Assembly: GCA_046563655.1 (NCBI GenBank) | Contig: CM102285.1 | Span: forward strand, 2,542,001-2,606,000 | Origin: Yuukianura sp. NJ FZ-2021 | Taxonomy: Eukaryota | DNA: 64,000 bases | Direction: 5' to 3' | Shown here: piece after piece, positions 11,850 to 64,000 of the stretch | Position numbering within the stretch: position 1 is the stretch's first letter | How the letters are laid out: every line of letters begins with the position of its first letter | Program-made: the position numbers and the translations under genes | The notes under the pieces: generated by a model | Databases searched by the model: none | What the model was told of the DNA's origin: nothing | Seen by the model: only the letters and a program-made list of their open reading frames with translations

Positions 11850-12296
11850 ATTTTGACTAAAAAACATTCAAAATCAAAGTCCAGCGTCGACAAATTTTTG
11901 AAGAAAAACGCTTTGTTTCATAGTTAAAAAATGCAATGTCTTAAGTTGACTTTGTTGCTATGTATGTGGCGATGACAATCTTTTTAATTATTAAAAAAGA
12001 GTTTTCCGTATACAAATTGACTTTTAATGAATTGGGGCACCATCATTAAAAGTTAATTTGTATTGATAGTTTGTGAATAACTACCTTCCCGACACGTCAT
12101 ACTCAACTAAATTCAGAATTCACGACCCAAATTTTGAACCAATCACTTAAATTCAAAACGGAAACCTCAAATTAGAATTTAAATTATAACTACCCACGGA
12201 ATTCTTAAGCACAAACTCAGCTTTAAAAACCCAAATTCAGAGCTGAAACTCCAGTTTGAAACCAAAATGGACTCAAGTGCTCCAAAACTCGCTTCC
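11850..12296 (+). repeat. Copy 1 of a duplicated promoter/5'UTR/start-codon block (copy 2 at about 13605-14049)
   Basis: Colinear similarity by eye, from ttttgactaaaaa...caaagtcca through gctgaaactccagttt...ccaaaatggactcaa; boundaries approximate. Confidence 0.85.
12010..12063. promoter_or_regulatory. 21-bp inverted repeat with 12-nt loop upstream of ribH
   Basis: atacaaattgacttttaatga-N12-tcattaaaagttaatttgtat (one mismatch, G-T). The repeat is directly visible; a regulatory role is inferred. Confidence 0.5.
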
Positions 12297-12785
12297 TCAT
12301 CTTCGGCTAAATATTTCAAATCCATACCTGTTCTTCCACAAATTTGTCAAGACAAAACCAAATTGAAGATTGGAATCGTAAGAGCAGGTTGGAACGGCGG
12401 CTTGGTTGATCCATTTGTAGCTGCCCTAAAGAAATGTTTGGCAGAGAATGGAATTGGATTGGAGCAAATCACGGAGATTCTAGTGCCGGGCTCATTTGAA
12501 ATTCCACTGGCTGCGAAAAACTTGAGCTCATCTGTCGATGCTGTAATCGCCGTGGGAGTTCTATTGAAGGGAGAAACTTTGTACTTTGAAATGATTTGCG
12601 AGTCGATCGTCCATGCCCTGATGAAGACTCAATTGGACACGGGCGTTCCAATTGTCAATGCTGTTTTCAACTGCTTGACGGAGGCCCAGGCGCACACGCG
12701 GTGCAATCCAACAAGTCAGTTGGTAGAATCGCTTGTGGCTACAGCAATATATATGGCGGCATTAAAACAGAAGACACTCGCTTGA
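12267..12785 (+). CDS. ribH: Stand-alone lumazine synthase-like protein (172 aa), with His-to-Tyr change in the GETxH motif
   Basis: KIGIVRAGWN, VPGSFEIP, GETLYFE, TGVPI, QAHTR; AATAAA at 12861. Confidence 0.9.
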   Translation: MDSSAPKLASSSSAKYFKSIPVLPQICQDKTKLKIGIVRAGWNGGLVDPFVAALKKCLAENGIGLEQITEILVPGSFEIPLAAKNLSSSVDAVIAVGVLLKGETLYFEMICESIVHALMKTQLDTGVPIVNAVFNCLTEAQAHTRCNPTSQLVESLVATAIYMAALKQKTLA

Positions 12786-13817: not shown

Positions 13818-14019
13818 TTACTGCTTGTGAATAATTACCTTCCTGACAACTCAAATTCAACTAAATCCACAATTCACAACCCAAATTTTAAAACCAAGCA
13901 CTCAAATTCAAAATCGAAACCTCAAATTAAGAGTTAAAATTAAAACTACGCATTTTTGAAACACAAACTCACCTTTTAAAAAGCAAAACAAAAAGCTGAA
14001 ACTCCAGTTTAAAGCCAAA

Positions 14020-15870
14020 ATGGACTCAACTGGTCCAAAATTCGCTTCAATTCCAGAAGCACTGGATGATTTCCGTGCCGGAAAATTTCTTATTGTAGTC
14101 GACGATGAAAACCGAGAAAACGAGTGTGATCTAATACTGGCAGCTCAGTTTGCTTGTCCAGCCAAAGTTGCATTTTGTGTTAACTACACCACTGGCATTT
14201 TGTGTGCTCCAATGACAGCTCTCCGAGCAAGTAAACTTCAACTACCAATGATGGTCCATGCCAATCAAGATCCAAATCGCACAGCATTTACAGTCACTAC
14301 TGACTCAGTTGACACTTCTACTGGAGTCAGTGCTTCAGACAGGTCAGTGACCTTTAAGCAATTGGCAGATCCAGAGGTCAAGGCACGTCAGTTCCGGCGA
14401 CCCGGACATATTTTCCCGCTGATTGCTCGTGCTGGCGGTGTGCTAGAACGGCCTGGTCACACCGAAGCGGCTGTAGATCTTTGTAAGCTATCTGGCTTAT
14501 CTCCGGTTGGTCTGATTGGAGAACTCGTCAATAAAGATGGGACGATGAAAAGATTAAGAGATGGCGCTGCATTTGGAATGAAACACAACATTAAGTTGAT
14601 TAGCATTGAACAACTCATATCCTACAGGCTGTCGAACCATAGCCTCAAAGTAGAAGATTTTGGAGCTTCAAATTTCAAATTTCAAAATTCGTACGGAGTC
14701 GAACTCGTTTCGGAATGCAAAATACCGGTTTGTTTGCGAGAAACCGATTTTGGAACATGGGCACTCAAGTGCTTCTTTTCCCATTTGGACGGAAGACATC
14801 ACGTGGCCCTGGAACTAGGTGACTTTTCGGAACAACCCGTCTTGACACGAGTGCATTCGGAATGCTTCACGGGAGATGTGATTGGATCACAACGTTGTGA
14901 CTGTGGCGAACAATTGTACAGATCAATTCAAATGATTGCCGCAGAGGGCCGCGGATTTCTTTTGTACAATGTTGGACACGAGGGAAGAGGAATTGGGCTT
15001 GCAAATAAAATTTTGGCCTATCATTTGCAACAAACTAAAAACATGGACACTTTTGCAGCAAATGAGGCTCTTGGATTTTGTGATGACTCGAGAAACTATG
15101 ATACTGCCAAGGCCATTTTGAAATTTGTGGGCATTGAAAAAATACATCTCATCACGAGCAACAAGGAGAAAGTGCGGGGTTTTCAAAATTTTGTTGATGC
15201 TGTTATTCCATTGGATGGAACGCCCAATCCACACAACCATGCATATTTGAAAGCAAAGAAAGAAAAGAATAGAAATGGCGCCAAGGATGAAACAGTTTTG
15301 TCTAATTTTGGTTCAATTCCGAATCAGGCCATCTCTTCGTCGGAATCGGCAGATATTTCATCCAGTAATGTTCCAGAGCGGGAAGATTTGAGTAAACATT
15401 TCAAATCTGTACCCGTTCTTCCCGAAATTTGTAAGGACACAACCAAACTGAAGATTGGTATTGTACGAGCCAGTTGGAACGACGGGTTGATTGGTCCATT
15501 TGTATCAGCACTTAAGAAAAATTTGGTCGAAAACGGAATTCAGTTGGAACAGATCACGGAAATTCTAGTGCCGGGATCGTTTGAAATTCCGCTTGTTGCG
15601 AAAACTTTGAGTTCTTCAGTGGATGCTGTAATTGCAGTTGGAATTTTAGTGAAGGGAGAAACTTTGCACTTTGAAATGATTTCCGCATCGGTGGTTCATG
15701 CTTTGATGAAGATTCAACTGGACACAGGCGTTCCAATCGTGAATGCTGTTTTCAACTGTTTGACGGAGGCCCAGGCGCATACGCGGTGCAATCCAACAAG
15801 TCAGTTGGTAGAATCGCTTGTGGCTACGGCAATATACATGGCGGCGTTAAAACAGAAGTCATTCACTTAA
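14020..15870 (+). CDS. ribBA-ribH: Trifunctional DHBP synthase - GTP cyclohydrolase II - lumazine synthase fusion (616 aa, intronless)
   Basis: RibB: DDENRENECD, TAFTV, RPGHIFPL, GHTEA. RibA: RVHSECFTGD..SQRCDCGEQL, HEGRGIGL. Ser-rich linker. RibH: GSFEIP, GETLHFE. Confidence 0.95.
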   Translation: MDSTGPKFASIPEALDDFRAGKFLIVVDDENRENECDLILAAQFACPAKVAFCVNYTTGILCAPMTALRASKLQLPMMVHANQDPNRTAFTVTTDSVDTSTGVSASDRSVTFKQLADPEVKARQFRRPGHIFPLIARAGGVLERPGHTEAAVDLCKLSGLSPVGLIGELVNKDGTMKRLRDGAAFGMKHNIKLISIEQLISYRLSNHSLKVEDFGASNFKFQNSYGVELVSECKIPVCLRETDFGTWALKCFFSHLDGRHHVALELGDFSEQPVLTRVHSECFTGDVIGSQRCDCGEQLYRSIQMIAAEGRGFLLYNVGHEGRGIGLANKILAYHLQQTKNMDTFAANEALGFCDDSRNYDTAKAILKFVGIEKIHLITSNKEKVRGFQNFVDAVIPLDGTPNPHNHAYLKAKKEKNRNGAKDETVLSNFGSIPNQAISSSESADISSSNVPEREDLSKHFKSVPVLPEICKDTTKLKIGIVRASWNDGLIGPFVSALKKNLVENGIQLEQITEILVPGSFEIPLVAKTLSSSVDAVIAVGILVKGETLHFEMISASVVHALMKIQLDTGVPIVNAVFNCLTEAQAHTRCNPTSQLVESLVATAIYMAALKQKSFT

Positions 15871-16447: not shown

Positions 16448-16924
16448 TTACTCCTTTGTATTTAGCGCCTTTTGAATCCATACTGCAAACTCGTTCACAG
16501 AAATTCTGCCATCGTGATCAGTGTCAGCGTCTTTCAAAAGTTGTTCGTAGCTTGAATCCTTGAGTCGCTGATCATGCGTAACGACAAATTGCAGGAAGTA
16601 GTCAAATTCTTCACGCGAAATATATCCATCTCCATCTTTGTCGTAAACTCTTGCGGCTGTTAGCATTGCGGCTGCCGTATCATGAAGCAACTGCATGAAC
16701 TCCATGTAGAGTTCCAACGGTAACCTGCCACCATAAAATTTCTCAAAGAATCCAACGTAGTTTTCTACTTGTTCTGGCGTCCGATCCCAATCCATTTGCT
16801 TGATGACTTCGAAAAAGTCACTTGTTGCAACTGATTCACCATCAAAAGTTGGCATCGACCGGTACGTCTGCTTGAGTTCTTCTAATTCCGAAGCTGAGAG
16901 AGGTTTCGTGTAGTCACGCGGCAT
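16448..16924 (-). CDS. Calmodulin-like EF-hand protein A (158 aa)
   Basis: Canonical loops DKDGDGYISREE and DTDHDGRISVNE in the C-lobe; N-lobe loops degenerate; ATG at 16924 aligns with paralogues. Confidence 0.88.
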   Translation of the reverse strand: MPRDYTKPLSASELEELKQTYRSMPTFDGESVATSDFFEVIKQMDWDRTPEQVENYVGFFEKFYGGRLPLELYMEFMQLLHDTAAAMLTAARVYDKDGDGYISREEFDYFLQFVVTHDQRLKDSSYEQLLKDADTDHDGRISVNEFAVWIQKALNTKE

Positions 16925-17759
16925 CCTAGAAACCAAAATTTTCTTTGACAATTTTCAGTTTTGAAACAAATTGTTCAAATTTCACGTAATCCTGTTGAGG
17001 GTATAACGACTGACTCTTCTTGACCTGAATGATTGAGATTTAAAGGGAATAATTTTGCTAAATGTTATTCAATTAGCGTAAACCACTGATTCCAAAACCG
17101 CAAAACACGTAACAAATGTGGTGTTACAATGATACAGAATGTTTAACAAAAGAGTGGTTTTTTAAACTGATATGTGTTTTCTGAGTCTTGAATTATGTAG
17201 AACAGCATACGACATGACTTCCTCAAATTCTTCCCGCAAAATAAATCAATCGTTGCTTTTCTCGGATGACGCGCTCCAGTCTGCATTATATCCGCCGTAT
17301 CATAAAGTTGCTGAACACAATACAAAAATCTGGACAGATATACTGCCAGCATAACTTCTCGAAGTAGGAGACAAATAACGTTGACTTCTTCTGGGCTTCG
17401 CATGCTCTTTAGTTGCTGTATTCCTGTAGGGTAACGGGATATGCGGTAGTCTGGTGGCATTTTACAGAATTTAACTTGCCGCAAAAATTACAACTATAGA
17501 AGTTGCTCCACTGATATGTATGTTAACAAGAATAATAACAAAACAGACCACTTAACTTTAATAATTTTTTTAATTAGAGTAAACCGCTAATACCAAAACC
17601 AGACAAAGGTTTGCCGTAATCTGGAGGCATCCTTCCAAAAAGGAAGCAGACTTTTGATTGGAGTTAAACGAAAAACTTTAGTAGACTTAAGAAAAAGAAT
17701 CCGTGCAGAATAAAATGGACTTGTGTGTTACTTTTGCTGAGAATAAATAAAAGAACAAC

Positions 17760-17835
17760 CTTTATTAAGTATCGTCAGATACTTATAGGCATCGTCTTGT
17801 CCGTCCGTTCATCCGTCTGTCCGTCCGTCCGTCTG
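17760..17835. repeat. Hairpin plus (GTCC/GTCT)n microsatellite resembling a DINE-1/Helentron-associated element end
   Basis: taagtatc-gtca-gatactta stem after a T-run, followed by gtccgtccgttcatccgtctgtccgtccgtccgtct. Confidence 0.5.
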
Positions 17836-18745
17836 AAGTCCCTTGAATATAAAAATTTTTTACTGTGAACCAGACCTTGCTAAGTCCTTGATCTCACCAT
17901 GCTTATTTATATCGTTTTTGCAAGAAGTTTATTTTATTTTTTTTTTAAGAAGTAATTGACCCAATTCGCTCTAACACGATGATTTCTAAACCATAAAGCT
18001 TAATTTAACTAATAAAACCAGTACAAGATACTGTTTCTTAGCGGTGTTTTGTTTTTTTGGAAGGTGTTTTCCAAACTGAAAAATACCTCAGTCTACTTAT
18101 TGAGCGCTAACATAGAAATTATCATTTTTTTTCAAATTTTATATAGAAGCCTTATGGAGCAAATGTTTTTGAAAAGCTAAGTTTTTTCATAAGCTCTGTT
18201 TTTGGAAGCGGAAAAAGCAACAACAGAAACCACTTTCTAAGAAAAGACAATAACCTGTAATATTTTTAGAGTCACACAATCATTTCAAAACAAATGAAAC
18301 CACGAAGTTTATTGAATTAGTGTAACCACTTTAAGAAATGTTGTTTTCATGTATTCATTGCTGAAAGAACGAAGCGAACAATTGTAACTAATGACATTTC
18401 GGTAAAACTCCGCTAATTTTAATCAATATAACTCATGTAGTGTTTTTGTCCCTGCTAGTGATAATATTTGTGAACACCCATAAATGTCATTGAAAAAAAG
18501 GACCTCTGATTAAAAAAAAAAAACAAAGTGCTGTTTTTTTAAAATTTATCTAGGATTTTATTTACAATTTATTTAACAGGAATTAACTGATCCGTGATTG
18601 CTTGGTCGACGAGAAGTCAAAATTTCATTTCACAAGTCATTGTTAGCTTAAAGCGTTTTTTTTCTGTTTCTTTGAAAATATGTACTCAAAAATAAAGTTG
18701 TAGTTACGCGAGTTGATCAATTTAGGTTGTCATTTCTTTATTGCC

Positions 18746-19213
18746 TCAATTTATCATAGCTCTAATCGAATCCGCAAAATCTTCCACGCTCACTTTGCCC
18801 CCATGTTCAGCGTCTGCTTTTTCAAAAACTTCTGCAAAGTCGTTCCCCTGCAACCTCGGATCATGCGCGACGATGATACCTTTAAATTCTTCGAAATCTT
18901 CTTTGGACAGCAGTCCATCTCCATTTGTGTCGTACGGCTTAGCTCGAACCTTCATCACTGCAGCCGTGTCGTAGATATTTGCCAAGCTTTCTTGAACGAT
19001 ATGCAACGGAAATCTTCCTCCATAAAATCTTGCAGAGTAAGTCCTGTACGCCTCCACTTGTTCTGGACTTCTCTCCCATCCTATTTTCTGCCAGAAATCT
19101 GCCGTATCAGCGCCTGCAATCGAATTGTCTTCAAAACTCGGCATGGAACGAAAAGCTTCTGCGATTTCCTCCAAGTCTGAAGTGGAAAGCGGTTTTGTGA
19201 AATCTATCGGCAT
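18746..19213 (-). CDS. Calmodulin-like EF-hand protein B (155 aa)
   Basis: MPIDFTKPL start; loops DTNGDGLLSKED and degenerate DAEHGGKVSVED; TATA-like TTTATAAA about 80 nt upstream. Confidence 0.88.
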   Translation of the reverse strand: MPIDFTKPLSTSDLEEIAEAFRSMPSFEDNSIAGADTADFWQKIGWERSPEQVEAYRTYSARFYGGRFPLHIVQESLANIYDTAAVMKVRAKPYDTNGDGLLSKEDFEEFKGIIVAHDPRLQGNDFAEVFEKADAEHGGKVSVEDFADSIRAMIN

Positions 19214-20391
19214 TCTGGAGAAGTTGAACTTTGAAGTTTTCTGCAGACGGAAATCTACAACTAAACTTGGAAAATAGACTGAAGGTCTTTTTATAAAGGC
19301 TGGTGCTATTGATAGTTTCAGTTGAATTGTAAAGAAACTACGCAACTTGAGTTAAAATATTAGGACAGAGAAGGTCAAGTTGCCTGCTCGCTAAACTTTT
19401 AAGCAATAAACAACAGTCGACACGCCTTCGAAATTCTGCCAAAAAACAAAAATTTGAATTTTGAAAATAATAATTTGTCGAAAATTTATCCACTGGAAGA
19501 ACATTTATCATTTGACTAACAAAACTGTGCGCCTGTAAACACACCCCGTGCAATGCAAACATTGACACATTACTATTGCATAATGCATAAACAATTTACT
19601 CTCAAGGCCGAACGCCCTAAACTGGAATTCAGGAAACATACGATCCAAAGACTCAAACATGGCATCGAAAGGTCAGCATTATTCGAGAAATTTCTGAAAT
19701 TTTGCAAAATATGAAGAAAAACCATATTATGTGTATAATTTCGGGGCATTTGGAAAAAATTCAAAATCTTGTCAATTTATGAAAACAAAAATACATGGAG
19801 AGTAATTACGAGGAAAAAGGAGCCGATCCACTGAGAATTGAAAAACAGACCATCCGTGTCATTTTTTAAAGCCTGTTTAGTCCAATACTAACATTTCTCA
19901 GCAGATTTCCAAACTTTTGCCTAGTTTAGTTCTGATTTGAAAACCATCGATGAATTTCATTAACCAATCTGAAAATATTAGTATGACGAACGGTTTCAGC
20001 ATTGAATTTTACAACATTTGGAGTTTATGTGGAATTACCAATATGAAATTATCGTTTCTTGCGTCAGTACTTCTAGTTACACTAATGAAATTTTCGCGAC
20101 ATTAATAAAGAGAAAGTGTATAAATATATTAGGAGTTTTTTTGACATTTTATTTCTTTCAGTTTTAAAATAAAACAATTACAATTATTGAGTTTAATTCC
20201 AATTGAGTTTAGATTAAACAATAACATGTTTAATTATATTTGTTCTAACTTTTTTTGGTGTCATAAACATTAACATAAAATATTTTGCTACTTTAACGCA
20301 ACAATTTCTCAGAGGAATAAATTCTTAAACGAAAAAACTTCTCTCAGCGGCGAGCTATTCGATGTGCTGCTTACAAGAATCCCCATAAATC

Positions 20392-20862
20392 TTACTGCAG
20401 CGTGGTATTGATCGAATCAGCAAATTTTTTCAAGCTCACTTTGCCATCATGGTTGGTGTCTGCATCGTTGATGACTTCCGCAAAGTCCTTGTCCTTCAAT
20501 CTGGGATCGTGAGTGACTATAGTATTTTTTATTTCCTCAAAATCCTCTCTGGAAACCAGCCCAGCGCCGTTTTTGTCGTACACTCTGCTGCCAATCAGCA
20601 CTGATGCTGCTGTGTCATGTGCCTGTGCCATGGATTCCATAAAAAGTTCTAGCGAAAACCTCCCTTCAAAAAACTTGTCAAAATATGCGCTGTACGCAGC
20701 AAGTTGTTCCGGAGTTCGCTCCCAGCCAATTTTGCTGAACAACTCAGCCGAGTCGCTACTGTTACAAATTGAGCCGTTTTCAAATGTCGGCAACGATCGA
20801 AAAATTTCTGCCATTTCTTCCAGGTCTGCAGCGGCAAGCGGTTTTGTAAAATCTCGTGACAT
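20392..20862 (-). CDS. Calmodulin-like EF-hand protein C (156 aa)
   Basis: Paralogue; loops DKNGAGLVSRED and DTNHDGKVSLKK. Confidence 0.88.
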   Translation of the reverse strand: MSRDFTKPLAAADLEEMAEIFRSLPTFENGSICNSSDSAELFSKIGWERTPEQLAAYSAYFDKFFEGRFSLELFMESMAQAHDTAASVLIGSRVYDKNGAGLVSREDFEEIKNTIVTHDPRLKDKDFAEVINDADTNHDGKVSLKKFADSINTTLQ

Positions 20863-21459
20863 TTTTGCAATTTTTGTTTACCTTTCCTTGTTTAGGGGCA
20901 GGGTTGAAATTCAGCAACTGATTAAAAATTGGCATTTAGCCCTTTTATACAGCTTTGCTTAATGATAATTTTGAAACTACGCAACTAAACTAACTTTAAA
21001 TGCGCTGATGTACACAAGGTCACAGATCACTCGTTACATAAGTTGTACATCCATAAAATCACAAACGTTTTTTTAACATTCGGTCAAATTGTTAAAACAT
21101 ATTGTATATATGTAATGTAGATAAAACATAAAAAATTTAAAAAAAATGTACAGAAAAACAACAAATAATCACACCCAAAAATAAAATCGGAAAATGAATA
21201 ATATCTTTTGTAATTTTATTTTCTTTTGGTTAATAAATGTTTCCACGCCCACTTCTCCTAGTGACAAATTTATATCCTTGTTCTTTCTCAAAAATTTTGA
21301 ATTTTTATTTATTGATTGGCTCGAATTCATGATATTGTGGATTAAGCTAGTAGCAACTACTAAATACATGCAATAAAGTTTTTTCAAATCTATAGCATGT
21401 GTTTTTCAAATGCTATTGAAGCAAAGCTACTACTCATGTTGCGATTCGACGCGTTGATT

Positions 21460-21933
21460 TCAGTCTGACTTTAGCGCAGTTTTAATCAAAGCAGCAAATT
21501 CTGCCAAGCTGACTTTCCCGCTATGATTGACATCTGCATCTGTCATGAGCCGAACAAAAGCCGCTTCCTTCAACTTTGGCTCATGCGTGATCATAGTTTT
21601 TTCCAGTACACTAAAATCCTCTTTAGAGACCAGACCGTCCCCGTTTATGTCGAACACTCTGGCTCCGATTAACATAAGTTCTGCTGGATCTTGAACGATT
21701 GCCATTCCTTCTTGGAAGATTTGGAAAGGAATCCTCCCGCCAAATTTTGTTTCATAGTAGGAGCTGTATGCAGAGATTTGTTCTGGGGTCCGATCCCACT
21801 CAATTTTCTTGAAAAACTGAGCCAATTCACTAACTGAGATTGATTCATCTTCAAACGACGGCATCGACCTAAAGGATTCTGCGATTTCCTCCAAATCCGA
21901 ATTGGAAAGAGGTTTTGTGAAATCTCTAGTCAT
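21460..21933 (-). CDS. Calmodulin-like EF-hand protein D (157 aa)
   Basis: Paralogue; loops DINGDGLVSKED and DVNHSGKVSLAE. Confidence 0.88.
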   Translation of the reverse strand: MTRDFTKPLSNSDLEEIAESFRSMPSFEDESISVSELAQFFKKIEWDRTPEQISAYSSYYETKFGGRIPFQIFQEGMAIVQDPAELMLIGARVFDINGDGLVSKEDFSVLEKTMITHEPKLKEAAFVRLMTDADVNHSGKVSLAEFAALIKTALKSD

Positions 21934-23023
21934 TTTCCAAATTTAATTTTAATTTTGCGGATTTAAGAGAAAAAAAAAGTTGCAAATTAAATCAGTAACT
22001 AATCAAAAGAAACACACGTTTGGTCTACTTTATATGCGACCTTCCATGGCTTGCTTCCTTTAAAGATTAAAACATTTCCAAACCAAGTTCATGTAATTAC
22101 TGAACCGACACAGTATGATAACATAAGCGCCGTCGTATACTTAAGTGTCACTTTAAATCTCAAGTCAACTGAAACCACATCTGCCTGATTCCGGATTTGA
22201 GTTTGCTTTAAATTTTGGGAGTGGAAATGCTCAATTCATTTACAAAGAACTGAATCAGCGTATCTTTTAAGATTTACATATCCTTTACAATATTGTCAAA
22301 AAATATTGAGCAATCCTGGAAATTTATTGTCTAAAAAGTAACTACTTGTCATATAACTACTACTACTTCTCATTTTATTTTGTTGCGAAAACTCTCCTAT
22401 TCGTCCCGCCTCATTACCAATTTCCCACTATTCTCGTCCATCATTGTCAAGTTAAAAGAAGGTTTTCATGAAACATTGAATTTTACGAGAATTTTTCTAA
22501 ATTGAATAACAAAATTTGGATCTTAACGCCTCGCGTTTGAGGGATTGAAAGAAGTTACAACATACAACACTAGTAAAGTTAATTTCAGTGTTTGTCCGAT
22601 TACGTAACAGGATTCCGTGACTACTAAGATGATTTACAGAACATACAACAAACCCCTACACATACGAAAATCGTTTGAAAATAAAACAATGTTAGTTTCA
22701 AAATTTAAAAAAAAAACCTAAGTATTGATGTCTTTATTAGATAAATGTTTTTCTTGAGGCCATTTTGACTTAAAATTTCATTCTTGGCATTGTGCGAATG
22801 AAGGTAAAATAAATAAAACGTTCAAACAATGTATTCTTGTGCCACTGAAATTGTTAAAGGCAATTGTAATAACATTTTATTGACACCGTCAAGAGAAGTA
22901 AAAGTTGATTGATAAAGGAAAGGTGAAGCGTAGAATGAAAAATTTTTAGCAGTAACTTGAGTTCGTTCTTTTAGCTGTTCTTCGGAACTGTTTTTTTAGC
23001 TGGATTCTACTACAACAGTAAAA

Positions 23024-49681: not shown

Positions 49682-50410
49682 TTATTTTCCGATTATGCCC
49701 AAAACTAAGTCAAAAAATGGCATTGGATTCCATTGAACAAATGCATACGTGTCTAAACCACTATTTGAAGGTATCATTCTTCCTTCGCAGAGTCTCTTTA
49801 CTTGCTGAAATTTCACATCTTCAGATTGTTTCTGAGCCCCAACGACGTAATCCCAAGCAGGATTTGGGTTTATGTCATCATCATAGTAAGCACTAGGATC
49901 CGTTGTGTTTTTAGCGATGCCGTCTATGCAATTTTGAACCGTTGACCAACATCCCCTTTCGTTTTCACCTCTATTCGACATCTCCAAAGCAAAGTTGTAG
50001 CCGACTTTAACTACTGGATCTCTGGCTACTCTATGAGCGTTGATCAGTCCTCCCCACATTGTAAGACCAAGCAGCACATTTATCAATTCAATTTCAACAG
50101 CCGTTTTTCCACGCAATTCCAATCTGTTCACCCAATTCACAGTGTAGTGCAAAGCTTGTCTTGTTTTTGGCAACCAAATTATGCCACACGCTCTTTGTCG
50201 ATTGGCGCAAAATGCAACCTCAACTCGACTGGTAGCGGCGGCTACAATTTCCAGACCGGCCAGTGTTGCTTTTCCAACACGAGTAAAGAAGTCTCCCCAG
50301 CTCTCGGCTAACGAAAAAAAATTAATCTTATGTTAAGTTGAAAATTTAAATTGAACCATAGGTAGGTCTGTTTTCGATCAGTTAGGCCAATGAAAAGTGA
50401 ACTCACCCAT
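49682..50410 (-). CDS. Uncharacterised 209-aa protein; exons 50410-50407 and 50307-49682
   Basis: ATGG|GTGAGT micro-exon spliced to a TTAG| acceptor gives MAESWGDFFTRVGK... in frame with ORF 49682-50173; no family recognised. Confidence 0.65.
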
Positions 50411-52199: not shown

Positions 52200-55100
52200 A
52201 TGCACGGTATGTTTTTTCAAATCTGAGAGAAATTTTGTATATAAAAATTTATAAAAAATAAATTGCTGTATAACGATGATGTTAATCTATTTTACTTCAT
52301 TCGTATCTTCCAGAACGTGCATGTTGGGTGACTTTGGTTGAAAATGATGCTGAAGGGTGGGCATCCGTTGTTCTGGCAAGGTCAATTCGGAGTACACTAA
52401 CGAAGTTTCCATTGACAATTGCAGTTAGTGAGCGTGTGTCGCAACCAATGCGGTTAGTTTCTTTTGAAAGTTTTTTTATGCATTAAAAAATTCCGAAATC
52501 ATTAATACGAGATCATGTTATTGGAATAATATATTAGTACGTGAAGTAGTACTCAATACATTTGCCGTCATTTTATCCGTGGTATACCAACATTTTCATA
52601 AAACAGTCCAAAATTCTTTCATTTTTCGTGCAATTTCGCTGCTATTTATGCTATATACAATTTATGGCGTTTCCGTCTGTACACGTGCTTTGGGGGAATT
52701 TAGAAACTACTTCGCTCAACCAGTCTGTTATCATCATCCAAGAAAGTTGCCAAGGTTTTCTTTAAGGTAATTTTCAATCCTTCCGTTTAATAGGAAGTGA
52801 TTAGTAGATTTCAAGGTTAAACATTTCCTTCTCAGATTAATTGGTTACCTTCATAATTGTTAACTCGTCGAGACAAAAAAGGTGACTGTTCACGGAAAGC
52901 TCATTGTCATATAATGACACAATGCTAACTTCTATTTTCCGTAAACTATTATTGTTTACAGCAATAATTTTTGTTTTTGCAGGTCACTATTACAACGAGA
53001 GTTTGATTTTGTTGCAAGATTTGACCTAAACGAAGTCGGTCTGCCAACGTGTAGCATTCTATGGCTCTGGACATTACGAGGATGGACGAAATGTGTCTAC
53101 GTCGACCCAAATTCATACGTAAGAATTGCTTCGTAAAATTTGAACAGCATTCTATGAAACTTATTTAACGTTGTTCGCGTGCCTACTTTTATACACATAA
53201 GTTAATGCTTGATTTGGTTTGACATACATTACTTTGAAAAATTTTTAAATTACATTTTTGTCACTATTTCTACACTTAAAACTTGGAAAAGAAAGTTTAA
53301 AAGCCATATTAAGAGTAAGTTAAACTTTTGTTCTTTGGTTTAAATCGGCTCTCTGTAGATGGTGAACTATTCGGACGATCTGTTTCAAAAACCGACATTT
53401 TCTGGTGTTGTAAATCAAAATGGAGTCGAACTATGTTCTAAGCACTTGTTCATTTTTCGTCCAAATGTTGACGAGTTTGAGAAACTTGTGCAATTAGCCA
53501 ACAACATTCAAGGTAAAAAAAAATGTAACGTATACTACTTGATGTGAATGAAATGTTACATCTCCTACAAGTATAAAAGTAAAATAATAACAAAATCCGT
53601 TGACAACCACATAAAAATTTCAAATTTAGGCGGAGTCCGAGCGATACTAAACCATCATTACAGCGCCTTACTTGCAAATTCGCAACATCAAATTAAGGCT
53701 GGGTTTTGGAAAAGTTGCAGAGAGTCTGAAATCAATTCAATGTATGTTGTTGCTTTTCTATTCAAGGTTGAAACGAATTTAAAATTTTCAACCTAACCTA
53801 ATTAAGCTTGTATGTCTAGTAAGTTGTTCGTTTTCTTGAAAAAACTGGGTAATTTGCATAGTTTTGTCGACAAATAATTGCTCTAAAAAATCATTTTTTT
53901 AAACGTGATTTTAGCGACTTTGCTTCAAATGTTATTCATTTTGGTGACATTTACTGGACAAAAATTTGGGAAGAAGAGGGAATTGAACTTGCATCAAATT
54001 GGTTCGACACTTTAGTGAATGACGTCATTCCAACGGTAAATCAGCTGAAGGTACAAATTTTAATTGCTTGTTGAGACTTTATTTTTGAATAAGTTTTTTA
54101 ATTGTATATATATATATATATATTGTACTTGACAAGCAGAATGAACGTACCAAAGCTGCTCTGTTGGCGTCATTGGAAGAACATGGACTGCTGAACTACG
54201 AAGCAACAGATAACCAACTGACGATTGCATCGATCCAGTACGATCAGCTACAAGATTTGAAACATTCAATTGCTGTAGTGGGTATGAGTTGTCGATTTCC
54301 TGGATCAAACAATGCAGATGAATTTTGGGAACTACTAACAAGTGGAAGAGATCCTATCAATCGATTTCCACAAAACCGTCCACGTCCACCAGCCAGAATA
54401 GACGAAGCAAACAATTTTGAAGCGGGATATCTCAAATGCCCAATTGATGAATTTGATGCTAAATTTTTTGGAATTAGTCCACGCGAAGCTCCGTTTGTGG
54501 ACCCACAACAAAGAATTTTGCTTGAAGTTATTTGGGAAAGCCTGGAAAATGCAAATATAAATCCACAAGGATTATATGAAAGCCCAACAGGAGTTTTCGT
54601 TGGAATTTGGCAACAGGAATATGATGACCAAATTTCAGGTTCAGCTCTCACTCCAGACGAAGTGCATCACAGATACTTAGGAAATGCGTTCAGTGCAACT
54701 GCGTCTCGTATTTCAAACTTTCTTGGCCTTTATGGACCAAACTACTCAATCGAGTAAGAGCAAAAAAAAACTTTGTTCTAAAATTTTGAATTCCTTTCTA
54801 GCTTTCAATAATTTTTTTTACATTCTTTAACAGGAGCGGTTGTTCAAGTAGCTCAAGCGCAATACATCTCGCTTGCCAAAGTTTGCGTAGAGGAGAGACC
54901 AAATTGTGCATCGCAAGTGGAGTTAATTTGGTTCTTCATTTTGCAAATCCATTTGGAGGTGACACCCTCGACTCAGTCGTGCTTGCAAGTGATTTTAGAT
55001 GTAAAACATTCGACGAGAGAGGTAACCCGTAACCCAAAATTATACAAAAAATTCTTATTATAGAAATACAAGGTAGAATACCCGCTTCTGAAAGCGGGGC

Positions 55101-58100
55101 TAGCTCATGTGGTAGTGTATGCTAACACAGATGGGAAAGCATATCAATTTTCGGAACCCACTATCACTTTGGGTACACGCTACCAATTGCGGGAACCCGA
55201 TACAACTTTGGGCACCCGCTAACAACTTTGGGCATCCGCTAACAATTTTGGGAATCCGCTACCACTTTGGGAACCCGCTACAAATTTGGGGAACTCACTT
55301 CCTGCGATGCTAATCATTGCGATAAGTCAATAAAGGCCAAACTTTACATGCCTCCACGCCGCGCCTCACGCCTATTTTTCGTTTGGCATTATGCAGGTCA
55401 CCGCCATAGGTCAAGGCTGAAAGGCCACACGTCATCGTGTTGCAAATTGATCGACTTCATTACACCTCTCCTTCTGAATGATATATCACACGCCTATTTT
55501 TCGTTTGAGTTTATGCGAGGTCACCGCTATAGGTATAGGTCAGGGGTCAAAGTCAATAGGTCATTATGTGATACACCAATCTAATTCATTTGATCTCTGC
55601 TTTCGGATGATATATCACATGCCTATGTTCAACTTTAAACTGGGTGAGCTCCCCGTTCGGGTTCAAGGGTCAAAGGTCACAGGTCAATATGTCACACATC
55701 AATCGACTGCATTAGACCTCTGCTTACGAATTACATATCACTTGCCTGTTCTTGGGATGATTTTGCGAGGTCATCGCGCCAGGTGAAGGGTCAAAGGTCA
55801 AGATGTCACATTTCTTCGGGGTGGCCTCCCGAAGAAAAGGACACCTCACTTGTCCAAATCGGTCAAGTAGTTTCGGGTGGAGTAGCAGGATATACACAGA
55901 CACAGATAAACAGGGTCTCAATTTTATATAAGTATATGCCATACTCCGTTTATTTTTGAATGGGGTCACTGCGGTAGGTCAAGGGCCAAAGGTCACATGT
56001 CAACATGTCATATACCAATCGACTCCACTTTGCGTCCTCTTTTGACTGATATGCTACACGCCTATGCTTCCTTTAATTTTGGATGGGGTCACTGCGCTAG
56101 GTCAAGGGTTAGGGTTGGGTCACAAAAAAGGTCACAGTCCAACATGTCATACATCAATCGACTTGATTTGACTTCTGCTTTCGAATGAGATGTCACTTGC
56201 CTGTGTTTCCTTTAATTTTGGCTTGGGTCATAGCGCTGGGTCAAGGGTCAAAGGTCGCAGGTCAATGTGTCATACATAAATCGACTGCATTTGACCTCTG
56301 CTTTCGAATGATATGTCACTCGCCTGTGTTGGGTATGATTTTGTGAGGTCATCGCGCTAGGTCAAAGGTCAAAGGTGACAGGTCAAGATGTGACATAGCC
56401 TATTCTCTGCGGGGTGACCTGACGAAGAAAAGGACACCTCACTTGTCCAAATCGGTAAAGTAGTTTCGGAGGAGGAGAGGAACATACACACAGATAAACA
56501 GGGTCTCGATTTTATATAAGTAGATGTATTCAAGGTGCTTTTACAACTAAAATACGACAAATTGTATTTCCTACAACAGGTTGCCCAATAACGCAGGGTT
56601 TGCCGGCCACTAGCTTCCTGCAAACAATTCCCCCCCCCCCCCATTCCTATTAAATTATATACAAATGATTATCTAGAAAGGCACGGCGACGCACCTTTTG
56701 CAAATTATTTGAGAAAATTAAAAACGTCGAGTTATTGGACAACCTGGTGTAGAATAAACAATTTGTTTACGAACCTTGTATGTATTATTCCATTTTATTA
56801 AAGCTACATTTACCATGTACATGTATTTGGATTTTCAGCCAATGGATTTGTCCGTGCCGAAGGCTGTGGCGCAGTCGTGCTCAAACCGTTTCAAGACGCC
56901 GTTCGTGATGGAGACAACGTTCTCGGTATAATTCGCGGAACTGCGTTGAACAATGACGGTCCTGCGTCAAGTTTTGGAACGCCAAATGGAAAGGCTCAAG
57001 AGCGAGTATTTCGAGAAGCTTTGGCTGATGCGGGAATCGAACCATGTGATGTGAGTGTAGTGGAAGCTCACGGTACAGGCACAATTGCTGGAGGTAATGT
57101 TGTAACTCCAAGTGTTTATTTTTAACCAACCTTGCTAAAATTTCCAAATTTGTTTTCAGACCCTACGGAAATGTATGCCATTGAACAAGTATATTCAAAA
57201 GGAAGAGTAGAACCACTATTTGTGAGTTCAGTAAAAACGAACATTGGACATGCAGAGGCATGTGCCGGAATGGCAGGGCTAATCAAAACCCTACTTTGTC
57301 TTAAACATAAAAAAGTCCCACCACATTTGCATCTCCAGAAACTGAATCCGAGAATCAATCTTGACAAAATTCCCGCCATTATTCCACAGCAACTCACAGA
57401 CTGGAAATCCGAAAAGCGAATTGCTGCTGTAAGCTCGTTCAGCATGAGTGGGACCAACGTGCACATAATTGTTCAAGAAACGCCCCAATTTATTGCTTTG
57501 GCTCGCAAAAACATTTCTTGTGCCAAAATTACACAATTGCAAATGGTCACAATTTCTGCCAAAACGGAAGAAGCACTAGAAGCTTTGTGTCAGAACTACA
57601 TTTCCCATTTTGAACATAATCCAAATCTAAACATAGCCGACGTCGCTCTTACGCTGAACACAGGAAGAGCAAATTTGCAGCATCGTATTGCCGTTATAGC
57701 GCAAGATACGGAAGAACTAAAGTCAAAGCTACTCAGCAGAACATATATCTCCGGAAAAGCGCCAACGCAAAAGCCGAAAATTATTTTCCTATTCACAGGT
57801 CAAGGTTCGCAGTATTTCGGAATGTGCAAGGAACTGTACAAATTTTCACCAGTATTTCAAACTGCACTGGACAAGTGTGATTTACTTTTTGAAAAATTCT
57901 TGAACTGCTCCTTAAAAGAAGTGATTTGGGGAGACGCTACTTTGTTAGACAAAACCGTATTTTGTCAACCGGCAATATTTTCAGTCCAATTTGCTCTTGT
58001 TCAACTTTGGAAGTCATTGGGTATTCGACCCGACGTGGTTTTAGGTCACTCCGTAGGAGAGTTCTGCGCATCAGTCTGCGCCGGTGTGCTATCACTGCAA

Positions 58101-61100
58101 GACGCCATGACTCTAGTTGTCACTAGAAGTCAATTAGTAAACTCACTTCAAGGCGGGAAAATGTTAGTAGTTAAAACTTCGCCAGCAGAAATTTACAAAT
58201 TGATCACAGAATTCAAAAATTTGAAAAACGACGCTTGGGTGGACGTTGCTGCTGAAAATTCTGTGCTAGAAGTCGTCGTATCTGGTACGCATGAAAATGT
58301 GGCTGCATTTGCCGATTTCTGCACAGCACGTCAACTGAAAACACAACTGATTGGAGCTGCGCATGCCTTTCACTCGCGATTAATGGAGCCAGTTTTAAGT
58401 GATTTCGGACAAAAAGCAGCAAAAATTGTTCCAAAAAATCCAAACTGTCGGTTTATCTCTGGAACTTTGGCGCGTAACTTGGAACTTCAAGATTTCGAGC
58501 CTTCTTATTGGATGAGACATCTACGAGACACAGTACGGTTCCACGATGCAATTAAATTTGTTTGTGAAGATGTTGATGAACCAAAAGTTTTCATTGAAAT
58601 TGGAGCCCAGCCTATTCTGACAAGTTTGACAATGGCAAATTTGGCCAACCCTTCAACAGAAACATTTTGTGCGTCAGTACGTAAAAATGAAAATGATTTA
58701 TCCTGTATGCTAAATTCTTTGTCCAAAATTTACCTCACTGGAATTGAAATTGACTGGAAACGATGGATTTCTGGAGGAAACAAAATTTCTTTACCGACGT
58801 ATCCGTTTCAACGTCAAAAATTTTGGATTCACTCTGATCACAAAGTCCAATTTGCTCATGTTTTGCATCCGCTACTTGGTCGCCAACTATCAACTCCCGC
58901 GCGCGACCAAATTTTTACTCATTTTATATCAACCAAAGAACTACCGTATATTGCCGATCACAAAGTGGCAGAAAAAGTTATTATTCCAGCAGCAGCTTAT
59001 TTGGAAACAATCATGGCTGCCGGTTGTCAAGTTCTGCAAGCCGGGAATGTTCAAGTGCCGTTTTGTGTAGAAAATTTGCAAGTTGAAGCTGCTTTAGAAC
59101 TTGTCAAATCATGTCAACTTCAAACAATTGTACGCACTGTTGGTGATACTGATGGCGTCAAATTTGAAATTGGGGTGCACAAGCAAGCGTCACGTGAGGA
59201 GTTGGACAAGTGGAAGCGACATGCTGTGGCGACATTTGCGTCAAGCTTTCAAGCCACTGCTTTAAGTAGCCTGGACATTCAAGCACTTCAAGGTAAAATG
59301 TCGCCAGTAGATACAATCAGTGAAGCCTATCAAACGTGCTCCGAAGCTGGTATTCAGTTTGGTCCAAGTTTTCAATCAATATCACGTGCGTGGAAGGGCA
59401 ATGAGGAACTTTTAACTGAAATTCGCTTACCTACTGATGCTGCTTCGTACATCTGTCACCCTATTGTTCTAGACGCAATGATTCAAACTTTTGCGCTTCG
59501 AACAGCATTTACATCAAAAACAAAATTTGAACTCCAACTACCAATCAGCATCAAGAGATTCACGTGGTTGTCGAAAGAAGCTACACAGAAAGTGTATGCC
59601 CATAGCCGCTGGAACGGAGATCTCCAGCAAGGTGGAACCGTTTATCTCTTGACAGATGCTGGACAAGTACTGGCAGTTATGGAAGGACTTGAACTGATTA
59701 CCACTTCAGTAGCAAGTTTCCTGCGTGCTTTAGACATAAATTCCAATGCACTACCAAGCTTCATGGAGGAAATTTGGAAAAAGTCAGACGACTTACTTAT
59801 TGGAAACACCAACCAATCAGAATCGGCTTCCCAAAATGCAGATTTCGTCGATCAACATCTTCAAATCAAATTTGCAACTATGGACCAGAAACAAGAAAAA
59901 TTGGAGGCAGCGCTAGAAATGGCACCAAATTCGAAAACTTGGCTTTTCATTTCTGATGGATCACCAGTTGAGGCAGCTTTGAGTAAGAAATTTAAACTTG
60001 CAGGACGGGAATGTTTAAGTTCTTTTGAAAATCAGGCAGAAATTCTGGAAGGAGTAATATTTTTCTGGACGGCTCCAGCAGTTGATGAAAATCAACAAAA
60101 GTGTCACGAACTACTAAACTTTTGTCAAAAATTTGTATCAACTTTTCAACAGGTCAATGTCAAACCAAAATTTGTTCTAGTGACACGCGGAGTTTACTAT
60201 TTGGGTGACTCAGGAGCTGGAAATCCAAATGCAGCAACTAGCGCTTCCTTCATTAGGTCATTTGCCAACGAACATCCAGATTTTCCAGTCATGTCAGTTG
60301 ACCTTGACCAAGATGAATCCAATACTGATAGAGAAGCAACTGAATTATTTGGAACCATTCTTTCAAACAATAAGGAAATGTTTAGAGCAATAAGGGAAGA
60401 CAAAGTTTATAATCAGCGATTAGTTTTGTTAGACAACAAAAACAACGGAATTTGTATGCCGAACTCAACAAGATTCAAAATTCAAAACCCGCCATCCAAA
60501 AGTTTAAACGATTTGCAAATTTCACCTGCCCCGAAAACAGAACCAACAGGAGATCAAGTCGAAGTGACAATTCGCGCTACGGCGCTAAACTTTCGTGATC
60601 TTTTTATGATTCTGCGTCCGGATGGATTCGAAGTGCCGGAATACCTTAACCCCGAACCGGGTTTCGACATTGCCGGTATCGTTTCGGCTATTGGTTCGAA
60701 CTGCACAAAATTTCAAGTTGGCGATTCTGTCATTGGTTGCGTTCTTGGTGGTGGCTTGGCATCTCACGTTGTTATTTCAGAAAAGCTACTCATGCGCAAA
60801 CCAGTTCAAATGACCTTCACTTCTGCAGCGACAATTCCAGTGGCATTCCTGACCGTGTTTTACTCATTTTTTGAATGTGCAAATTTGAAACGAGGAGATC
60901 GAGTGCTAATCCATGTAGCCACTGGTGGTGTTGGCTTGGCGGCAATTCAAATTGCAAAGCATGTTGGCGCTGAAATTTTTGCAACTGCTGGAAGTCGTCG
61001 AAAACGAGCTTACCTGAGTTCACTGGGAATCGAGTATGTCTACCACTCTAGAAATACAAACTTTGGCTCTGAAATTTTGAAAGACACAAACGGTGAAGGA

Positions 61101-64000
61101 GTTGACGTCGTTTTGAATTCTCTAACTGGTCCGAATTTCAAAGAAGCTTCACTTGGTGCATGTGTCAAAAATGCCAGATTTGTTGAAATTGGTAAAATTA
61201 ATATATGGACAGAAGATGATGTAAGAAAAATGCGTCCTGATGTTAAGTACTTCACGGTAGAACTGGTGGATACTGCGCGGGAAAATCCAAAATTGTTCAA
61301 AAAACTTGTAGACGCGGTTGATGCTGCTTTTGAACAAGGCATTTACCGAGGCATACAGCACGAAGTGTTTCCATTTGACATGATCAAAGAAGCCTTCTAC
61401 TACTTTCAAGAAGCAAAACACATTGGAAAAATTGTCGTGTCTATTCCAGAAACAAAAGTATCGCCCGAGGGCAAAATACTTTTTCAAAATGATCTTTTCC
61501 ATGCACAAAGTACGTATCTTATCACCGGTGGTTTAGGTGGTATTGGCTTGGAAGTTGCAAAATGGATGGCAGAGCGTGGAGCTAAAAATTTGGTCATCAC
61601 TGGACGAAAAGCACCGTCACAGTTAAAACTGGACGTCTTGACGATGTTGAATAACAAGGGATGTCGAACTGTAGTTTTACAGGCGGATGTTGGAGTCTAC
61701 GAAGAATGTGAATCACTGCTCAAAAACATCAAAGATTTGAACTTCCCACCACTTCGTGGCATTATGCACGCTGCTGGAGTTTTGGCGGATGCAATTGTAC
61801 TGAATCAGTCTTGGGAAAAATTTGAAACTGTTTTTCAACCGAAAGTTCGCGGAACTTGGAACTTGCATAATCTAACCCTGGATTACGAACTTGAATTTTT
61901 TACGTTATTCTCAAGCGTGGTTGCAATTTTTGGAGCTCCCGGGCAATCTAATCATGCAGCGGCTAATAGATTTTTGGATTCGTTTGCACACTACCGCCAT
62001 TCATTGGGACTTCCAGCTAACAGCATTAACTTTGGAGCTTGGGCTGATGTAAGCTGACAAAACAATATAACATCCAAGGTTGCTATAGCAAAGAAATAGT
62101 TTTCTTTTAACAGGTTAGGCAATTAGTCCTGTTTTCGAAAAATCTTGAGTCAAATATTTTTCCTACCTTTTTTTGTTTTTTTAATATCTTTTACTCCTTT
62201 TCTACTTTGAATTTGTCAATTCAAAAGCCATCTCTGCAAATTTTTTAACTCCTTTTATTATACCAACCGTGTTTGAAACTAGGTGAATTCAGTACTGAAA
62301 ATTTTTTGCAAAACAGCTTAAAACTCGAGTTATTGTCTAACCTTTTAAAGAAAAAAAATTTCTTTGTTTATCCACGGTATTCTTGATAATACCGATTTCA
62401 TATAAAATTAATATAATATATATCTTTAAATATTGTTGTTTTTGAATTTCAGGTTGGAGTTGCCGCGAACCTGAAAAGTTTCAAAGAAGGTACACTGGGA
62501 ATGCGCAGCTTTACACCCAGTCAAGGTCTACAATCAATGCAAAGAATATTTTGGACAAATCGACGCCAAGTGGCCGTCGCGGACGTTTTTGATTGGAGTC
62601 TTCTAAAGCAAATCAGTCGACTCGGTAACTATTTTGACCAAATAAAGTCTGAAGCCACTTTAACCATGAAGACAGCAGATGATGACAGCGTCATCACCGG
62701 GAAACTTCAAACTGCAACGCCGGAGGAGCGTCAACAAACGATTGAAAACTTTTTGGAGAATGCTCTCAAAGAAACACTGAGAATTCCCGACAACGAGCGG
62801 ATAGACCGAGATCAAAACTTTTCTGAAATCGGAGTCGACTCACTTATGGCCATGGAGTTGCGCAATCGAGTTCAAGGAATCTTGAACGGCAAACAATTGG
62901 CAGTGACTGCATTACAAGAAAATCGAACCATCAGAAGCCTTGCAACTCACATGTCAAAACTAATTTGTTCAGATGACACTCAACAACTTTCGGTAGAATC
63001 TCTCATTGCGCAAGACTCAATTCTTCCAGCCGAAATTCAGCCCACTGAAATCCCGCCTTCAAAACCGAGTCAATTTAAACAAGTTATGTTAACTGGTGCA
63101 ACTGGTCATCTCGGTATCAACTTAATTCCGGCGCTGCAAAACGAAAATCCAAATTTGTTTATTCACTGCATCGTGCGCGGCAAAAGTTCTGTAGACGCCG
63201 GTAACCGCTTGAAAGAAGCTGTGAACCAATATTCTCTCACCAACAAAATCAATTTTCAAAAAATTCGAATTTTGGCGGGAGATCTTTCACAGAAAAATTT
63301 CGGCTTACCGTCTCACGTATACGATTCACTCACACAGGAAATTGATGCCGTTATTCACTGCGCCGTAAAAGCAAATCATGTAGAAGAGTACAACGGATTT
63401 GGAGCAGAGAGTTTGCGCAGAGTGAACGTCGAAAGTACTCTGAATGTTCTACGTTTTTCAGCCGTTGGTAAAACAAAGGCAATACTCTACGCATCAACAC
63501 TACTAGCCGCTTCTCAAGTAGATGAAAACTGCGCATTAGTCGAAAACTTTCCAACCGCGCATGACTCTGTTTCTACAACAAGCAATGGCTACGTTTTGTC
63601 AAAATTTGTCTGTGAACGGCTAATGGCACAAGCACTACAACGTGGAATTCCAGTCACGGTCATTCGGTATGCAAACATCTTCGGCAACAGTGAAACCGGG
63701 TTCTTGCCTACCGAAAAGAGTCATGCCTGGAGAATCCTCACTTCTTGTATCCGTGTAATGAAGTTTCCAAGTCTAGGTCAAAATGGTGTTCCTATAATGG
63801 CGGTGGATACGGCTGCTGACGTCACGGCAAAAATCTTCCTCCAAGATTCCATGGAAACGGGAATGTACAACTTGACCAGCAGTTCGACAATTTCAGAAGA
63901 AGATATTGTTGCAGCATTTTCGGAATTTGGGGTAGACGGAGAATTTGTGCCGTACTTGGAGTGGCGGGATTTAGTTTTCAAAAACAAAGAGGACAATGAC
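52200..64000 (+). CDS. Glycogenin-like(GT8)-KS-AT-DH-ER-KR-ACP-thioester reductase type I PKS, 3'-truncated; exons 52200-52206, 52314-52452, 52983-53118, 53359-53512, 53630-53741, 53915-54050, 54140-54753, 54834-55021, 56839-57093, 57160-62048, 62453->64000
   Basis: KS: IAVVGMSCRFPG, ESGCSSS, HGTGT, NIGH. AT: GHSVG, HAFHS. DH: HKVAEKVIIP. ER: HVATGGVG. KR: TGGLGGIG. ACP: GVDSL. R: TGATGHLG, YVLSK. All splice phases are consistent. The PKS part is secure; the glycogenin join is a manual model. Confidence 0.85.
55125..55295. repeat. About 20-bp minisatellite (tttgggaacccgctaacaa-like), about 8 units
   Basis: Degenerate head-to-tail repeats without spacers. Confidence 0.8.
55350..56395. repeat. 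About 115-120-bp tandem repeats rich in GGTCA motifs, inside the Helitron
   Basis: Recurrent ggtcaagggtcaaaggtcacaggtcaa...atcaatcgact...ctctgctttcgaatgatatatcac. Confidence 0.8.
56561..56762. mobile_element. Small MITE-like element, termini related to 43742-43958
   Basis: attgtatttcctacaacaggttgcccaataac ... gttattggacaacctggtgtagaataaacaat, an imperfect TIR. Confidence 0.65.

Follow-up and report, generated by a model that had tools for sequence, protein, structure and literature searches.

The stretch analysed here, referred to below as the window, comprises 64,000 nucleotides of contig CM102285.1 of Yuukianura sp. NJ FZ-2021 (assembly GCA_046563655.1, positions 2,542,001 to 2,606,000 of the forward strand; all positions given are those of the window). 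In its right-hand part it carries a gene which, according to our spliced model, encodes a type I polyketide synthase (PKS) preceded by a degenerate relative of glycogenin, a glycosyltransferase of family GT8; this N-terminal part will be called the leader. The model (Table 1) consists of 11 exons and contains 2,721 stop-free codons, remaining open to the end of the window. As had been proposed in an earlier note made from the sequence by eye, six small exons (52200-54035) join in frame to the exon that begins the ketosynthase (KS) domain at 54140, and all introns are bounded by GT..AG. The leader is about 223 residues long, the five exons that follow the start exon measuring 112-154 nt each, and its introns are in phases 1, 2, 0, 1, 2 and 0, the sixth being the fusion intron, which separates the leader from the PKS. 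The two parts differ in intron density, with six introns in 0.67 kb of coding sequence in the leader versus four in 7.5 kb in the PKS part. The GC content of the exons is 0.37-0.57, and that of the six introns bounding the leader exons is 0.22-0.32. At the fusion intron, the last leader exon offers two in-frame donors 15 nt apart (54035 and 54050) and the KS exon a tandem CAG acceptor (54137/54140); all four donor/acceptor pairs keep the frame and create no stop codon. Depending on the pair used, up to four isoforms would be possible, with linkers differing by 1-6 residues.

Table 1. Exons of the predicted leader-PKS gene, the fusion intron and the riboflavin-pathway genes of the window
Feature	Position	Strand	Motifs and support
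Coding exon 1, 7 nt (ATGCACG), start codon, phase 1	52200..52206	+	donor GTATGT
Leader exon 2, 139 nt, GT8 N-terminal beta-alpha-beta, phase 2 inside an Arg codon	52314..52452	+	motifs WVTL..ND, VSQPMR; tblastn P0285 E=1e-9, P0241 E=1e-4
Leader exon 3, 136 nt, degenerate DxD (VDPNSY) at end, phase 0	52983..53118	+	tblastn P0285 E=7e-10; PDB phmmer glycogenin-2 E=0.71
Leader exon 4, 154 nt, DDLF + strand/helix in place of FNSG, phase 1	53359..53512	+	tblastn P0285 E=2e-4; PDB glycogenin-1
Leader exon 5, 112 nt, degenerate DGGDQG..LN (QGGVRAILN), shortened acceptor-loop region, phase 2	53630..53741	+	in frame, GT-AG, family alignment
Leader exon 6, 121 nt, IHFG motif + last helix, phase 0, joint to PKS	53915..54035 (alternative donor 54050)	+	leader aligns to P0285 through residue 197
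Fusion intron, 104 nt, GC 0.23, GTAAAT..CAG	54036..54139	+	tandem CAG acceptor 54137/54140
Exon 7, 614 nt, ~43-residue linker, then KS N-terminal half	54140..54753	+	PF00109 E=1.8e-42, residues 43-204
Exon 8, KS active-site Cys (SGCSSS)	54834..55021	+	spliced model
Exon 9, KS first catalytic His (EAHGTGT)	56839..57093	+	spliced model
Exon 10, 4,889 nt, KS end (NIGHAEA), AT (GHSVGE, HAFH), DH, ER, KR	57160..62048	+	Pfam
Exon 11, ACP (DSL) + thioester-reductase (R) domain, continues past window	62453..64000	+	PF00550, PF07993
RibD deaminase/reductase	9503-10585	-	
Riboflavin synthase	10737-11609	-	
Lumazine synthase	12183-12785	+	
DHBP synthase-GTP cyclohydrolase II-lumazine synthase fusion	13960-15870	+	

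Several features of the locus point to one gene rather than two. The leader and the PKS part lie only 104 bp apart, and the spacer has the composition and the borders of the other introns. The open reading frame (ORF) of the KS exon (54089-54757) contains no in-frame ATG upstream of the conserved GMSCRFPG motif, so the start codon comes from the leader; the first ATG of this exon (54141) is out of frame and runs into a stop after 17 codons. Moreover, the join of leader and KS recurs in protein records of two springtails. In Folsomia candida it is seen in P0145 (annotated as 'PpsC'), in P0299/P0304 (XP_035716828.1/OXA63741.1, a single locus from two annotation sources with the same join) and in P0265 (OXA47680.1), which is named 'Glycogenin-1, partial' and ends in the start of the KS; in Orchesella dallaii it is seen in P0253 (CAL8122466.1), whose leader continues into EPIAIIGMSCR. 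Like the gene of the window, these PKS records combine a degenerate GT8 region of ~220 aa, a short linker and the KS in one protein model; their identity to the window is 26-30% for the leader and 43-46% for the KS. This recurrence indicates that the arrangement of leader and KS is conserved and not unique to the window. A word-indexed search with residues 1-226 of P0145 among proteins of 1,295-4,122 aa retrieved P0145 itself only, and when metagenomes were scanned with the beginning of the large PKS exon, one locus (L001) was obtained, with 35% identity and no leader-like sequence.

Alternatively, the locus might hold two genes, the first for a stand-alone degenerate glycogenin-like protein (~236 aa, with its stop at 54074), the second for a PKS transcribed separately from the AT-rich spacer. 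Read-through past donor 54035 does meet that stop after 13 codons, the 104-bp spacer contains a (TA)n run and AATAAG, and short stand-alone models exist, namely those of 183-252 aa in O. dallaii and P0285, a 221-aa ORF from a metagenome; unfused forms or unfused isoforms may accordingly be real. We nevertheless find the two-gene explanation improbable, since a PKS that started independently would lose the conserved beginning of its KS, every donor/acceptor combination across the fusion intron is in frame, and leader and KS are united in one model in four other genes from two species and different annotation sources. A single fused transcript very probably spans the joint, as judged from the gene models.

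The glycogenin homology of the leader, which the earlier note had recognized from a handful of motifs, is confirmed by quantitative comparison. In these searches the leader was represented by the exons spliced in a script by their coordinates. It matches glycogenin-1 of F. candida (XP_021960471.1, P0241) in blastp with 85 bits, E=3e-20 and 29% identity over 173 aa, and gives comparable scores with glycogenins of a copepod, a tardigrade, a beetle, a fly and amphioxus; with two of the animal glycogenins the alignments extend to residue 222-235. A profile of 33 glycogenins is matched with 79.8 bits over residues 4-159. The sequences for this profile were chosen by a DGGDQ-type motif from 63 relatives, the other 30 being left out, and the 63 relatives had in turn been retrieved, in addition to the query itself, at E<=0.001 (64 proteins in all) by phmmer with residues 1-226 of P0145 against 1.84 billion representatives. 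The closest relative of the leader is P0285 (34% identity over 203 aa, E=1.5e-40), whose N-terminus, M-H-E, is that of the window as well. When P0285 and P0241 were compared with the 64-kb window by tblastn, exons 2, 3 and 4 were recovered in colinear order and with the predicted borders, and there was no match elsewhere.

Some of the exons carry a recognizable signal even when taken singly. In phmmer searches of 177,635 PDB sequences, exon 3 ranked glycogenin-2 second (E=0.71), and 12 of the 15 matches of exon 4 were glycogenin-1 (residues 111-154, E from 0.7 to 1.5, colinear), while exons 2, 5 and 6 singly gave no glycogenin. Exon 6 was also compared with the C-terminal segment of glycogenin, and its 1.2 bits, matched by 98 of 1000 shuffles, are not significant. 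The bridge to the fused springtail genes is much firmer. P0145, which stands 25th among the 120 matches listed for the large exon, aligns colinearly with the leader plus KS of the window (428 aa) at E=5e-49, and the two leaders alone align at E=4e-14 (26% identity over 157 aa, Smith-Waterman z=22 with 1000 shuffles). Residues 1-226 of P0145 match 19 glycogenin sequences in the PDB with E=1.1e-8 to 2.1e-6, the next of the 24 matches being another GT8 protein at E=0.56. The motifs WVTL..ND, SLR, VS..MR, KCV, DDLF and HF.G are common to the leader and glycogenin, and alignments A1-A3, which combine fused and short forms with true glycogenins, have T, S-L, D..F and P columns that vary little or not at all. 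Taken together, the comparisons confirm that the leader is a real homologue of glycogenin, far beyond chance. However, the expression 'a whole glycogenin', used before, holds for the catalytic domain only, as the C-terminal third of glycogenin is absent.

The exon borders tell of the origin of this homologue. Published reports on human GYG1 place c.7 at the exon 1 donor, c.319 at the exon 4 acceptor (PMC10792954) and the variant c.143+3G>C in intron 2, the skipping of exon 2 shifting the frame from codon 3 (PMC5735306; also PMC13737462, PMC7046021). The human borders so derived, c.7/8 (phase 1), c.143/144 (phase 2) and c.318/319 (phase 0), correspond to the borders 7/8, 146/147 and 282/283 of the window gene. 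Compared with human GYG1, the window gene is one codon longer near its N-terminus. In either gene an intron interrupts the Arg codon of the common MR motif between the second and the third base, and Met95 of the window equals human Val107. On the strength of these sources, three of the five introns internal to the GT8 domain are identical to those of human GYG1 in codon position and phase, and to this extent the match of the 7-nt first exon and of the phases, which the earlier note had put forward, is substantiated. The fourth internal intron matches what we take to be a human border at c.481/482, for which the literature searched gave no confirmation. From the shared positions it follows that the leader descends from a genomic, intron-bearing glycogenin gene of an animal; judged by these borders, it is a copy of such a gene, and the positions date back to the split between the human and arthropod lineages.

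With high probability, as far as the alignments tell, the leader is enzymatically dead and not a working glycogenin. Motifs were called from the family alignment, human numbering being fixed by exon 4 residue 5, which equals residue 111 of chain 7q0b_E. Both regions reported lost in the earlier note, the DxD motif and the surroundings of the autoglucosylated Tyr, are indeed lost: the metal-binding DxD (human D102-x-D104) reads D-P-N in the window, and the loop that bears the self-glucosylated Tyr (human Tyr195) is shortened and has no alignable Tyr, with ~13 loop residues missing before the KLHCW helix. In addition, the FNSG turn of glycogenin is replaced, and DGGDQG (human D160, D163, Q164) has become QGGVRA. 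The catalytic roles of the DxD, DGGDQG and Tyr195 residues are those we presume for glycogenin, and the PDB titles of Asp159, Asp162 and Tyr194/195 mutants agree with them. Among the fused springtail genes, P0145, P0299 and P0253 have lost the DxD motif's second Asp, whereas P0265 keeps D-x-D.

The conservation of some residues leaves room for the view that the domain still binds a ligand, such as a UDP-sugar or another nucleotide, e.g. that of an acyl-CoA starter, or that it has become newly catalytic, for instance glycosylating the polyketide. Its best-conserved part is the N-terminal, nucleotide-binding half (WVT..ND/DD, SLR, VS..MR), the HF.G motif of the window still has its His, and there is the D-x-D of the F. 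candida copy P0265. On the other hand, several residues which we assume to be catalytic are replaced in the window, namely the second Asp of DxD, the FNSG Asn and, in DGGDQG, the Gln and the two Asp, and we judge a binding or catalytic function very improbable.

As to the proposed targeting of the enzyme to glycogen, it finds no support in our analysis. The likeness of the linker (EEHG..Y..D) to the glycogen-synthase-binding tail (W-E-x-G-x-x-D-Y-x-G-x-D-x-F), when scored against a profile built from 26 instances of the tail motif, amounted to -2.3 bits, a value that 518 of 1000 shuffles matched, and it is thus at chance level; the Tyr that anchors glycogen is gone too.

The fold of the domain, for which the earlier note had suggested a check against GT8, was modelled on two relatives, P0285 and residues 1-226 of P0145. 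The model of P0285 (mean predicted local distance difference test score, pLDDT, 87.6) matches glycogenin over the full domain with TM-scores of 0.84-0.87 and E about 2e-22. That of P0145 is less complete: its pLDDT is 73.8 and its top match is glycogenin as well (E=2e-13, TM about 0.52 over ~146 columns), the first ~150 residues being good and residues 157-226 falling below a pLDDT of 50. For both proxies, then, the models predict a GT-A fold superposable on glycogenin. The leaders of F. candida are more decayed in their C-terminal half than that of the window, and the linkers of the fused springtail records differ from the linker of the window.

Another reading would be that the fusion is real, that only the captured promoter, the 5' untranslated region (UTR) and the ATG matter, and that the GT8 remnant is a passenger, i.e. 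a neutrally decaying extension. The fused leaders sit on very long terminal branches (2.5-6.3 changes per column), the C-terminal part of the P0145 leader is unmodelled, the linkers vary in length and sequence between the fused genes, and the catalytic motifs are lost. A neutral extension of 220 residues should, however, have become shorter or been broken up, and yet the reading frame is uninterrupted through the six exons of the window gene and in no fewer than four further genes, at only 26-30% identity; the (near-)invariant columns of alignments A1-A3 and the confident full-domain fold of P0285, the closest relative of the window leader, argue in the same direction. We therefore hold neutral decay to be rather unlikely.

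The PKS part is probably of another descent. Pfam recognizes in it KS (PF00109, PF02801), AT (PF00698), DH (PF21089/PF14765), ER (PF00107/PF08240), KR (PF08659), ACP (PF00550) and R (PF07993) domains. The Cys-His-His triad of the KS is intact (SGCSSS, EAHGTGT, NIGHAEA), as are the GHSVGE and HAFH motifs of the AT and the DSL motif of the ACP. The best matches of the KS exon are bacterial, with up to 47% identity among the matches listed, in agreement with the designation 'microbial-type' given to this PKS before; the complete KS has 43-50% identity both to bacterial KSs and to those of springtails. By its domains and closest matches, the PKS part is bacterial-like, a predicted single-module, fully reducing type I enzyme of the order KS-AT-DH-ER-KR-ACP-R with reductive release. 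Fully reducing type I PKS modules of cyano-, proteo- and actinobacteria share the KS-AT-DH-ER-KR-ACP order at 34-49% identity but, unlike the window gene, have neither introns nor a GT8 leader, and PF01501 was absent from the 120 matches listed for the KS exon and the 120 listed for the large exon. P0145, in contrast to the window PKS, has no R domain in its Pfam list.

For F. candida, the genome paper reports 30 type I PKS clusters, most of which it assigns to horizontal transfer (PMC5490193), and one PKS of this species is cited as horizontally acquired in a second paper (PMC10764717). In our FastTree tree of KS sequences (71 rows, obtained from 71 candidates by dropping one for a short match and adding the window), the window, P0145 and P0304 fall into one clade with an SH-like support of 1.0. 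Within the PKS part of the window gene, intron 8 (55022-56838) is conspicuous for its length of 1.8 kb, a GC content of 0.43, outside the 0.22-0.32 of the other introns, and tandem repeats, with periods of 19/39/59 nt at 55145-55290 and of 123-139 nt at 55988-56386; the insertion of a repetitive element is the probable explanation.

We suppose that the history of the gene was as follows. A horizontally acquired PKS of bacterial ancestry would have been joined to the 5' exons of a copy of the host glycogenin gene, the captured exons supplying the start codon and presumably the promoter and the 5' UTR too. The fusion would predate the diversification of this PKS family in springtails and would have been kept since. 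The GT8 domain has lost the residues for glucosyl transfer and self-glucosylation, with its fold apparently kept at least in the N-terminal half, and has most likely been preserved as a folded module at the N-terminus that no longer catalyses; it might act as a structural cap, serve in regulation or docking, or perhaps hold what is left of a nucleotide-binding site. That the PKS was domesticated by capture of glycogenin exons, and that these exons are kept as a folded non-catalytic domain, is in our opinion the likely explanation of the locus. The capture of a host glycogenin copy had already been put forward in the earlier note, in the sense of both promoter and leader; the homology, the introns and the supply of the start codon bear out the leader, while the promoter belongs, together with the single transcript and the structural role of the leader, to what we infer from the arrangement. 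For the function of the domain, a structural or assembly role is our preferred guess.

One may go further and regard the exon capture as the initial event through which a bacterial megasynthase became expressible in springtails, the dead GT8 domain having become an obligatory N-terminal module, e.g. a dimer cap above the paired KS domains or a nucleotide/CoA-binding gate for the starter unit, inherited by an entire family of animal PKS genes. We consider this wider proposal speculative and somewhat doubtful; if true, it would add a new type of PKS domain and a testable route by which horizontally acquired biosynthetic genes are domesticated.

Several observations weigh against the domestication of the PKS by captured glycogenin exons, beside the read-through stop and the unfused forms already described. 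Two metagenomic PKSs, P0125 and P0128, belong to the KS clade of the window and have no leader in their called ORFs. The GT8 family of Pfam (PF01501) gave no match in the single leader exons, which are too short for Pfam, nor in P0285 or residues 1-226 of P0145. In the GT8 tree the origin of the degenerate forms could not be placed because of the long branches. The evidence for the fold comes from models of relatives that are 26-34% identical to the window leader, and the weak conservation and poor model of the C-terminal third of the F. candida leader fit relaxed constraint. As to P0125 and P0128, they could represent the donor lineage, or else be animal genes with uncalled leader exons. Both are uninterrupted ORFs (2,585 and 2,595 aa) that start 11-42 residues before the KS.

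With animal glycogenins (GYG1/GYG2) the leader shares the homology of the catalytic domain, the GT-A fold predicted in its relatives, and three intron positions with their phases. It differs from them in having no DxD, FNSG, DGGDQG, Tyr loop or glycogen-synthase-binding motif, and in being fused to a PKS, whereas glycogenin is a stand-alone protein. Other N-terminal additions to PKSs, such as docking or coiled-coil segments and GNAT-type loading domains, precede the first KS and may aid assembly or the handling of the starter. To our knowledge, no such addition has a GT-A glycosyltransferase fold, and we know of none that derives from exons of a host gene. In the window, no docking domain of Pfam was found in the linker, exon 7 showing PF00109 only.

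Our literature search found no paper describing a leader-KS (GT8-PKS) architecture, and the word glycogenin is absent from the F. candida genome paper (PMC5490193). The earlier statement that no example had been described thus stands for the papers searched but not for the databases, where the same architecture is present in public records of two springtails. The architecture is undescribed in papers, yet it lies uncommented in public springtail protein records, and what is new is its recognition, not the data. In polyketide enzymology, a GT-A pseudoenzyme placed before the first KS would be an undescribed arrangement with possible roles in assembly, regulation or ligand binding. The conversion of a bacterial gene into a working animal gene, with promoter, start codon and introns, is rarely visible; here the join appears to be preserved, an intron-rich 5' part of host origin being spliced onto an intron-poor synthase of bacterial type.

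As for the rest of the window, a 216-codon open frame without a Pfam match lies just upstream of the PKS gene on the minus strand (49682-50332). The region 23000-49000 (plus strand) is occupied by a tandem array of ~5 multi-exon genes resembling pyridoxal-dependent decarboxylases, each with a hydrophobic N-terminus; one of their exons was found among bacterial-type clusters only (Protein Atlas). Four similar tandem ORFs of ~160-200 aa are located at 16448-21942 (minus strand), and the one that was scanned encodes an EF-hand protein. At the very start of the window (1-2351, minus strand) there is a fragment of a non-ribosomal peptide synthetase, comprising the end of a condensation domain and an adenylation domain, which runs off the window start. 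Finally, between 9503 and 15870, riboflavin-pathway genes (Table 1) are present as long uninterrupted ORFs within an intron-bearing eukaryotic contig; animals do not usually have such a set, which may represent a further block of acquired genes.

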